Shown here: in pieces, positions 9,055 through 59,702 of the stretch | Position numbering within the stretch: position 1 is the first letter of the stretch | Layout: each line of letters begins with the position of its first letter | From: a virus | Taxonomy: Duplodnaviria; Caudoviricetes | DNA length: 64,000 nt | Reading direction: 5' to 3' (one strand) | IMG/VR virus record: IMGVR_UViG_3300049988_000286 | Coordinates: 384,001-448,000 of that record | Position numbers and translations under genes: made by a program | The notes under the pieces: generated by a model | What the model saw: the letters and a program-made list of their open reading frames with translations, nothing else | The model's database searches: none | What the model was told of the DNA's origin: nothing

Positions 9055-9149
9055 TGGTACGCCCGGAGGGATTCGAACCCCCAACCGTTCCGCGATCTGC
9101 GGATCATGAGGTATAAGCTCACCGCTCTAACCAATTGAGCTACGGGCGC
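9055..9149 (-). tRNA. tRNA-Ile(UAU) with long variable arm
   Basis: Cloverleaf GCGCCCG/CGGGCGT, anticodon loop CT-TAT-AC, variable arm CCGC-AGATC-GCGG, encoded CCA. Confidence 0.85.
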
Positions 9150-18969: not shown

Positions 18970-19045
18970 TGGCAGGAGCGCCGAGACTCGAACTCGGAAC
19001 CTACGGGATTGGAAGCCGGTGCTCTACCAATTGAGCTACACTCCT
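18970..19045 (-). tRNA. tRNA-Trp(CCA)
   Basis: AGGAGTG/CGCTCCT, G73, loop TT-CCA-AT; only 3 paired positions in the anticodon stem. Confidence 0.8.
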
Positions 19046-59134: not shown

Positions 59135-59179
59135 ATGAACACGCAGAGCCATCACACCTATTATCATTACCACGCGTAA
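59135..59179 (+). CDS. leader peptide MNTQSHHTYYHYHA
   Basis: 7 of 8 consecutive codons His/Tyr; upstream of Tyr and His tRNAs; ATG 5 nt after TAAATA. Confidence 0.8.
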   Translation: MNTQSHHTYYHYHA

Positions 59180-59241: not shown

Positions 59242-59300
59242 CACTCTCCCCATAGTTGAACCCGCGAAGACGCAGATGATTTGCGTATCATGTTGCTAGT

Positions 59301-59384
59301 GGGTCGGCTGGACACGAGTGAGTCCACCTGACTGTAAATCAGACGCTTTGGCTGTGAGGGTGCAAATTCCTTCCCGGCCCACCA
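59301..59384 (+). tRNA. tRNA-Tyr(GUA), atypical D/T loops
   Basis: GGGTCGG/CCGGCCC, A73, loop CT-GTA-AA, V arm, CCA. Confidence 0.8.
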
Positions 59385-59409
59385 AGCAACCAAAGAACAG
59401 TGATCAGGT

Positions 59410-59483
59410 GCGGCCGAGGCTGACTTGGATGAGGCGCGCGGTTGTGATCCGCGAGATAGTGAGTTCGAACCTCACCGGTCGCC
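59410..59483 (+). tRNA. tRNA-His(GUG), no encoded G-1 or CCA
   Basis: GCGGCCG/CGGTCGC, stem CGCGG/CCGCG, loop TT-GTG-AT, canonical T arm, C73. Confidence 0.75.
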
Positions 59484-59502
59484 CCTGAACACTGTTCACC
59501 TT

Positions 59503-59596
59503 GGGAGGTGCCCCCGCTCGCCGGTTGTAACCCGGTGGTCTCTAATAAGGGTGGGAAGCATTGAGGCGATGGGTGCAATTCCTACACCTCCCACCA
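59503..59596 (+). ncRNA. D-armless tRNA-like RNA with GUA anticodon
   Basis: 8-bp acceptor GGGAGGTG/CACCTCCC, A-CCA end, anticodon arm GCCGG-TTGTAAC-CCGGT, 4-bp T stem; no D arm, 33-nt extra region. Confidence 0.65.
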
Positions 59597-59599
59597 CGT

Positions 59600-59674
59600 G
59601 GCGTTGGTAGCTCAATGGTAGAGCGCTCGATTGTGGATCGAGATACGCGGGTTCGATCCCCGTCCTTCGCCCCA
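59600..59674 (+). tRNA. tRNA-His(GUG) with G-1:C73
   Basis: G-1, GCGTTGG/CCTTCGC, loop TT-GTG-GA, CCA. Confidence 0.9.
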
Positions 59675-59702
59675 GACCTTCTAACAAGTCCCTAAATATG
59701 TC

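Follow-up and report, generated by a model that had tools for sequence, protein, structure and literature searches.

We analyzed a stretch of 64,000 nucleotides (nt), hereafter the window, that covers positions 384001-448000 of the 499,572-bp phage genome (57% G+C) recorded in IMG/VR as IMGVR_UViG_3300049988_000286; coordinates are those of the window unless otherwise stated. The element under study is a 94-nt gene (59503-59596, + strand) for a putative transfer RNA (tRNA), tRNA-Tyr(GUA), whose connectivity departs from the cloverleaf and which we refer to as rewired. It is part of an array in which all elements lie on the same strand, in the order leader open reading frame (ORF), four-armed tRNA-Tyr, tRNA-His, candidate and second tRNA-His. 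The leader ORF, MNTQSHHTYYHYHA (59135-59179, +), has a verified translation, so that the Tyr codons which an earlier sequence-only reading of this DNA had noticed in the leader are real; a promoter-like site (59136-59164) overlaps it. This ORF holds four His and three Tyr codons, and the array downstream of it holds only Tyr and His tRNAs. The first tRNA gene, an atypical four-armed tRNA-Tyr(GUA) (59301-59384, +), scores 29.2 bits with the Rfam tRNA model and is missed by ARAGORN. The first copy of tRNA-His(GUG) (59410-59485, +) was identified by ARAGORN and Rfam, and the second (59600-59675, +), with G-1, C73 and CCA, starts 4 nt past the CCA of the candidate. According to a covariance model search, the rewired gene is present in a single copy in its own phage genome.

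The proposed structure of the candidate, all on the + strand, begins with an acceptor stem in which the 5' strand GGGAGGTG (59503-59510) forms eight Watson-Crick pairs with the 3' strand CACCTCCC (59585-59592), followed by the discriminator A73 (59593) and an encoded CCA (59594-59596). The acceptor and anticodon stems are joined by a connector of only 9 nt, CCCCCGCTC (59511-59519), that contains no local hairpin. Its first two nucleotides, CC (59511-59512), occupy the place of U8 and N9, and its other seven, CCCGCTC (59513-59519), are the 5' strand of a helix that we named P. The anticodon arm GCCGG/TTGTAAC/CCGGT (59520-59536) pairs 59520-59524 with 59532-59536 and carries the GTA anticodon at 59527-59529 in a 7-nt loop with U33 and A37. 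Between the anticodon and T arms there is a 33-nt insert (59537-59569) in which GTCTC (59538-59542) and GAGGC (59563-59567) form a variable-arm stem, V; within its loop, an A/U-rich linker, TAATAA (59543-59548), leads to the 3' strand of helix P, GGGTGGG (59549-59555), which is directly followed by the motif AAG (59556-59558). The T arm (59570-59584) has a 4-bp stem, TGGG/CCTA, and the 7-nt loop TGCAATT, with G at the U55 site and C56 kept. Thus, the 8-bp acceptor stem with A73-CCA, the 9-nt connector, the GUA arm, the 33-nt insert with GGGTGGG and the T arm all lie where the sequence-only reading had placed them. The 29 proposed pairs (8 acceptor, 7 P, 5 anticodon, 5 V and 4 T) are all standard, and the five pairs of V cross helix P to form a pseudoknot. 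The frame of acceptor, anticodon and T stems has a computed energy of -23.8 kcal/mol, which falls to -33.5 when P is added (9.7 lower) and to -29.7 when V is added (5.9 lower).

The candidate is a confirmed member, as judged by sequence, of a widespread, conserved and unannotated family. Sixty distinct homologues of 87-96 nt, none of them annotated, were collected from viral contigs, contigs of metagenome-assembled genomes (MAGs), metagenomes and five cultured phages. A first pattern search of IMG/VR (TGTAA, a gap, the T arm and CCA) gave two other sequences with the same layout; a second one, based only on CCCC, TGTAA and the T arm and leaving the G-rich strand unconstrained, gave about 36 distinct sequences. 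A further pattern added three members without an encoded CCA, a condition that is frequent among ordinary tRNA genes. No relatives were found in viral contigs through the flanking proteins (the neighbours of 278 and 125 amino acids), and BLASTn comparison of the candidate, L147 and L132 with cultured phages gave nothing meaningful, the candidate producing only chance 25-nt matches to Propionibacterium phages. At least 14 members lie on MAG contigs labelled Hyphomicrobiaceae, Hyphomicrobiales, Hyphomonas, Amphiplicatus and Planctomycetota, among others, two of these contigs being equal in length to phage contigs of IMG/VR, and three come from metagenomes; for isolate chromosomes there was no family member among the matches listed, which does not by itself establish absence. 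The cultured carriers are Pseudomonas phages Lyrsu01-03 and Rembedalsseter and Rhizobium phage RHph_N3_2, with covariance-model scores of 83.8 bits for Rembedalsseter, 82.3 bits for RHph_N3_2 and 73 bits for Lyrsu02.

Membership of the candidate was assessed with a covariance model, R3, seeded with 14 homologues from MAG contigs and from which the candidate and its closest subfamily were left out. In the 64-kb window this model found the candidate at 63.5 bits (E=3e-15), over model positions 1-90 and with the exact ends 59503-59596, and its next match was an ordinary tRNA at 18.6 bits. Against another model, R1, the candidate scored 72.6 bits. It also shows the layout that characterizes the family: an 8-bp acceptor stem, a 2-nt linker, a helix P of at least 6 bp, a 5-bp anticodon stem, a stem V that crosses P and a 4-bp T stem. 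Helix P has seven pairs in the candidate and six in the family model, and the linker between V and the 3' strand of P is A/U-rich and varies from 6 to 13 nt across the family. The consensus of the two-nt linker at U8/N9 is UU or UC (TT in 30 members, TC in 19 and CC in 3, of 60).

The sequence-only reading had noted that the C-run replacing the D arm can pair with the G-rich insert, and comparison of the homologues bears this out. In a first alignment of 42 distinct sequences, fitted to a model containing helix P, the nested helices were 97.5% paired, with a covariation of 0.646 against 0.174 in shuffled alignments (none of 500 reached the observed value) and at most 0.119 when partners were slid. 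Since this alignment had been fitted to P, a second model was built with stem V in the place of P, and the 42 sequences were realigned to this P-less model (alignment A4), both helices being counted by means of pseudoknot brackets. In A4, 97.3% of the cells were paired, covariation was 0.622 against 0.167 for shuffled alignments (again 0 of 500) and at most 0.105 for slid partners, and 23 of the 27 pairs changed on both sides. Helix P (columns 11-16 with 53-58) was 99.2% paired, and four of its six pairs changed on both sides; pair 15:54, for instance, was AU in 23 sequences, CG in 9, GC in 5 and UA in 3. Across the 60 members P occurs in 24 distinct sequence forms, which include CCCCAC/GTGGGG, CCCCGC/GCGGGG, CCCCTC/GAGGGG, CCCTAC/GTAGGG, CCACTT/AAGTGG and CCTGTC/GACAGG. 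As for stem V, its first three pairs were essentially always paired, and pair 37:70 appeared as CG (26), GC (6), UA (5), AU (2), UG (2) and GU (1). Covarying pairs were also found in the acceptor stem (8/8), the anticodon stem (5/5) and the T stem (2/4, 95.8% paired). These data support five predicted helices, including P and the crossing stem V. All 42 members in A4 align over their full length to a consensus layout that combines an 8+4 acceptor/T branch with a limb made of the 6-bp helix P, one nucleotide and the 5-bp anticodon stem.

The three nucleotides that follow the 3' strand of P, UGG in the consensus of the family, show a further regularity. Where the T loop is TGCRATT (G55), which is the case in six distinct members, the candidate included, they are always AAG, even though the search pattern did not require it, and one member with C55 has UAG. 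Thus A at the first G position of the motif was found only with a non-U nucleotide at 55 (7 of 7), and G at that position goes with U55 in 48 of 49 cases. The pattern is suggestive of a motif that would be the counterpart of the D-loop G18-G19 pair of residues contacting the T loop; the members concerned may share ancestry.

This association also bears on the possibility that the copy in the window is a decaying duplicate, made redundant by the four-armed tRNA-Tyr 200 nt upstream. Its deviant features, namely C at the U8-like position, G55 and AAG in the place of UGG, could all be read as signs of decay, and the R1 score of the candidate is the lowest among the G55-type members. However, six distinct sequences whose stems differ greatly combine G55 with AAG, which argues for a maintained subfamily, and all 29 pairs of the candidate are intact. 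Close relatives, which are DNA contigs from other samples with 95-99% identity, give indications in both directions. Two changes were seen in their copies of the gene: C59542>T converts a C-G pair of stem V into U.G, so that pairing is kept, whereas G59508>A, found in one close relative, leaves an uncompensated A.C mismatch in acceptor pair 6. In a relative from a phyllosphere metagenome, the upstream Tyr and His genes (59279-59501) are replaced by 109 other bases with the leader region kept, yet the rewired gene was retained in this rearranged array with a single, pair-preserving change. The density of substitutions is uninformative on selection, being similar in the gene (2 in 94 nt) and in the adjacent array (10, plus one 1-nt gap, in 385 nt). 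Taken together, we regard decay of this copy as very unlikely. The homologue search that had been suggested with the sequence-only reading shows that the gene is no isolated case, with 60 distinct homologues, and that the helices of the family covary. The tRNA genes downstream vary among the relatives, a sign that the array is being reshuffled.

Several features of the family point to tRNA-Tyr identity. The GUA anticodon is accompanied by A73 in 59 of the 60 members, G1-C72 is present in 58 and CCA is encoded in 57. The anticodon loop is CUGUAAA or CUGUAAC in 53 members, the former being the anticodon loop of Escherichia coli tRNA-Tyr. The sole member with a different anticodon (L169:3512-3603, +; from IMGVR_UViG_3300037418_001546, a 524-kb phage) has the Trp anticodon CCA together with G73, the bacterial discriminator for Trp. 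This matched change of anticodon and discriminator argues for recognition by a synthetase. It is a single observation, as no further Trp-type (CCA) member was found in IMG/VR and an anticodon-agnostic pattern returned GUA members only. The array that holds the Trp-type member also has a GUA copy, at a distance of 2.4 kb.

Genomic context is also that of a tRNA gene. At 32 of the 40 viral-contig loci examined, the rewired gene stands among tRNA genes of the same strand and with the spacing of such genes. It is the only gene with a Tyr anticodon in five of seven complete genomes checked, and the only GUA-anticodon hairpin gene in the complete genomes G006 (175 kb), G007 (178 kb) and G010 (195 kb); one 14.5-kb contig encodes 36 tRNAs for 19 amino acids, and the rewired gene supplies the twentieth. 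Among the cultured phages, Rembedalsseter and RHph_N3_2 have no other tRNA-like gene, and in Lyrsu02 it is located 4 nt upstream of the only other tRNA-like gene, a tRNA-Pro. In RHph_N3_2 (L340) an annotated HNH endonuclease gene (797-1387) lies about 100 nt upstream of the rewired tRNA-Tyr gene (1491-1579). Several carrier genomes, that of the candidate among them, also keep a four-armed tRNA-Tyr.

The sequence-only reading had left room for a decoy for anticodon nucleases or tyrosyl-tRNA synthetase (TyrRS). In this alternative the RNA would mimic tRNA-Tyr so as to absorb a defence nuclease directed at tRNA-Tyr, or to bind TyrRS or a modification enzyme, and would not be used by the ribosome. 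Such a role would suit the small cultured phages in which this is the only tRNA-like gene, a situation that fits poorly with simple codon supplementation, and also the phages that, like the present one, have a four-armed tRNA-Tyr besides. Furthermore, defences that cut tRNA-Tyr do exist: the PtuAB nuclease of Retron-Eco7 cuts host tRNA-Tyr, at a site that was mapped to the variable loop (PMC12673091), and a tRNA-Tyr of its own lets phage T5 escape (PMC11555353). That counter-measure, however, is itself a working tRNA, and a decoy for an anticodon or variable-loop nuclease would not need the conserved 12-bp branch, G1-C72, A73, a CCA that is encoded or can be added, or an anticodon limb of fixed length. 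Neither would it be expected to show the paired anticodon and discriminator change of the Trp-type member, or to fill the empty Tyr slot of complete genomes that have 25-28 other tRNAs. We therefore consider a decoy unlikely. The other proposal of the sequence-only reading, a re-engineered tRNA-Tyr, is the best fit to the array context, G1-C72, A73, the GUA loop identical to that of bacterial tRNA-Tyr, the 8+4 branch, the Trp/G73 case and the position of sole Tyr decoder in several complete phage genomes.

The phage encodes a TyrRS of its own outside the window (396 amino acids; G000:C1 ~477546-478736, that is, L192:1429-2619, +), which matches the TIGR00234 tyrS equivalog with 304 bits and contains Pfam tRNA-synt_1b and an S4-like C-terminal domain. 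A general tie between the rewired tRNA and a phage TyrRS was considered and rejected, as TyrRS was absent from all ten other large carrier contigs, six of which are rated complete. In those carriers the host TyrRS must normally serve.

None of the 60 members, the candidate included, was called by ARAGORN, and the Rfam tRNA model (RF00005) did not match the candidate even at E<=10 nor reach its threshold on any of the three cultured-phage copies tested, as the sequence-only reading had anticipated for standard tRNA finders. The candidate lacks the D hairpin of the canonical four-armed cloverleaf that RF00005 describes. It does have the other marks of a tRNA: acceptor stem, discriminator and CCA, a 7-nt anticodon loop with U33 and a purine at 37, and a T arm, albeit with the atypical loop UGCAAUU. 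Its best Rfam match was tRNA-Sec (RF01852), an identity that we rejected because the score of 16.2 bits is far under the gathering score of 47, the anticodon is GUA and not UCA, and there is no 6-bp D stem; a YrlA identity was likewise rejected (15.2 bits against a threshold of 69). These weak matches, together with the TyrRS gene of the phage, are what could be said for some other structured RNA (a processing or punctuation signal, a primer, a TyrRS regulator, or an RNA of the Y-RNA or tmRNA type) whose likeness to a tRNA would be incidental. Both matches are nevertheless well below threshold and the other large carriers have no TyrRS, while the anticodon loop and the discriminator are the most conserved parts of a family that is specific for one anticodon. 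We consider an incidental likeness very unlikely. Since the finders miss 60 of 60 members and the gene is unannotated in the GenBank records of the five cultured carriers, phage tRNA inventories appear to be under-counted.

We conclude that the candidate is probably a working tRNA-Tyr with a rewired connectivity and a design other than the cloverleaf. Its layout can be understood as that of a class II tRNA-Tyr in which the D 5' strand plus D loop has moved into the variable loop: the 5' strand of P runs into the anticodon stem in the manner of nucleotides 22-25 and 26 of a normal tRNA, the 3' strand of P followed by UGG would correspond to the other D strand and G18-G19, and V stands at the place of the long variable arm. 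Helix P would close directly on the anticodon stem and cross V, so that the core would be an H-type pseudoknot that preserves, with a different wiring, a GG/AG elbow motif and a D-stem-like helix on top of the anticodon stem. Therefore, the description of this RNA as D-armless in the sequence-only reading stands as far as the D hairpin is concerned, which is absent, but not for the D-stem-like helix and the GG-type motif, which appear to be kept in rewired form. The RNA would be transcribed together with the Tyr/His array, excised in the manner of a tRNA to end in its encoded CCA, and aminoacylated by TyrRS, which would recognize G1-C72, A73, G34-U35-A36 and the variable stem. EF-Tu would then carry it by its 12-bp (8+4) acceptor/T branch to decode UAY codons. 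EF-Tu is known to read 12 bp of the acceptor/T branch (PMC5389517). Moreover, the histidyl-tRNA synthetase, EF-Tu and ribosome of E. coli accept, without adaptation, a synthetic tRNA devoid of the whole D arm, the obstacle being decay by PNPase (PMC11551756).

Some observations weigh against this interpretation. The minimum free energy fold of the candidate as a single sequence is a nested structure unlike a tRNA and is unremarkable (z = -1.47); we set it aside because the folding program does not model pseudoknots. The candidate departs from the consensus in the C at the U8-like position and in G for U55 in the T loop, and one close relative carries the uncompensated acceptor mismatch already described. 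The four-armed tRNA-Tyr in the same array means that the candidate is not needed as the sole Tyr decoder. As the family sequences share ancestry, the shuffle statistics overstate their independence. A search for RNA data sets that cover the locus yielded none. Finally, transcription, processing, charging and decoding of the candidate are all inferred from its sequence, and topology is the sole argument for the proposed three-dimensional equivalence to a D arm.

Comparison with known systems shows what is peculiar to this design. With class II tRNA-Tyr(GUA) (RF00005; E. coli tyrT/tyrU; the gene at 59301-59384) the candidate shares G1-C72, A73, CCA, the loop YUGUAAM, a variable stem, a T arm and a location in tRNA arrays, whereas it differs in the lack of a D hairpin, the pseudoknot between connector and variable loop, the 8+4 instead of 7+5 branch and its escape from RF00005 and ARAGORN. 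The (8/4) tRNAs (allo-tRNAs, and tRNA-His and tRNA-Ser of alphaproteobacterial phages) have the same 8-bp acceptor and 4-bp T stem and also occur in phage tRNA clusters, but they are described as cloverleaves with no reported loss of the D arm, and correspond to Ser, His, Cys and Sec, not Tyr (PMC5389517). Metazoan mitochondrial tRNA-Ser and the synthetic mini HisT of E. coli equally lack the D hairpin; in them the connector is short and unpaired, the shape is flexible and Y-like, and there is no D/T elbow (PMC7609411, PMC9427863, PMC11551756). Unlike the D-armless mitochondrial tRNAs, the candidate has its connector in a covarying helix, keeps the GG/AG motif and is found in phages of bacteria, not in organelles. 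It resembles tRNA-Sec (RF01852) in its 8-bp acceptor stem, long variable region and length of about 90 nt, and differs from it in having a GUA and not a UCA anticodon, no 6-bp D hairpin and a T stem of 4 instead of 5 bp. The Tyr and Val tRNA-like structures at the 3' ends of plant viruses (brome mosaic virus, turnip yellow mosaic virus) are also chargeable tRNA mimics that use a pseudoknot; there, however, the pseudoknot builds the acceptor stem, and the structures are cis elements of RNA genomes, not free genes of tRNA arrays, and are not known to serve in decoding.

Phages do not appear in a 2020 review of non-canonical tRNAs, in which the D-armless cases described are mitochondrial; according to a 2024 paper, every bacterial tRNA known is a cloverleaf. 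No published description of the rewired design was found in full-text literature searches, whose coverage is incomplete, so that prior publication is possible. A conserved tRNA-Tyr with a pseudoknot core and no D hairpin would be a natural counter-example outside mitochondria. As to its advantage, the idea that we find most attractive, a speculative one, is that the design resists host defences that cut or deplete tRNA-Tyr. Phage tRNAs are known to counteract defences directed at tRNAs, and a remodelled and base-paired variable loop and the lack of a D hairpin could plausibly protect this one. Speculatively too, its presence as the sole tRNA of small phages fits resistance to defence better than codon supplementation. 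The broadest proposal is that phages of Proteobacteria carry a natural and fully functional class of non-cloverleaf tRNAs, originated by relocation of the D segment, folded into an L shape through a pseudoknot, charged by ordinary TyrRS, used by the ribosome and kept for defence resistance; we put it forward tentatively and, as a whole, with more doubt than confidence. If true, it would explain why this is the only tRNA gene of some phages of 43-47 kb and why the same wiring was reused for Trp. The rewired tRNA may also reveal a route of phage escape from tRNA-directed immunity and could serve as a scaffold, already tried out in nature, for orthogonal or engineered tRNAs, and the cultured Pseudomonas and Rhizobium carriers make these claims amenable to the bench.

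Other tRNA-Tyr genes seen in this work were unusual as well. The four-armed gene at 59301-59384 has a D loop, ACGAGUGA, without GG and an 8-nt T loop, UGCAAAUU; in a close relative its anticodon stem shows a triple compensatory change (59329-59331 with 59339-59341). Its homologues, 76-81% identical and unannotated, lie within the tRNA arrays of Caulobacter phages CcrColossus, CcrPW and CcrSC, Brevundimonas jumbo phages and Sphingobium phage Lacusarx, and dozens of IMG/VR contigs likewise hold them. The array of Lacusarx includes an ORF (L002:830-1195) that ends in the Cys/His-rich motif CANCHRRK. Another tRNA-Tyr(GUA), at L171:1296-1385 (-) and also in L153, has a 6-bp D stem and a 4-nt D loop resembling those of tRNA-Sec, is missed by ARAGORN and shares its array with a rewired copy. 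A 68-nt GUA match in L171 and L153 resembled an even smaller armless form, a reading that was rejected because the true 5' end gives four arms with the 6-bp D stem.

In the whole phage genome ARAGORN identified 41 tRNAs and one permuted transfer-messenger RNA (tmRNA) gene of the two-piece type (G000:C1 15556-15913), with the tag VNDNDIRMAIAA. The permuted tmRNA and the homologues of the four-armed tRNA-Tyr in Caulobacter, Brevundimonas and Sphingobium phages point to an alphaproteobacterial host; the DNA data set that matches best is a leaf metagenome. Long, stem-forming variable arms, giving lengths of 84-95 nt, were observed in tRNAs usually belonging to class I (Met, Arg-ACG, Asn, Cys, Gln-CUG, Ile-UAU and both Glu), often next to a copy of normal length with the same anticodon; examples are found at G000:C1 25686-25776, 26983-27073, 27717-27803, 52274-52364 and 68172-68259, and at 9055-9149 of the window. 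ARAGORN also reported a tRNA whose 8-nt loop holds the four-base anticodon tcca (window 18970-19045, -) and which scores 59 bits with the Rfam tRNA model, and two tRNAs with the amber-reading anticodon CUA (G000:C1 102238-102314 and 106351-106425).

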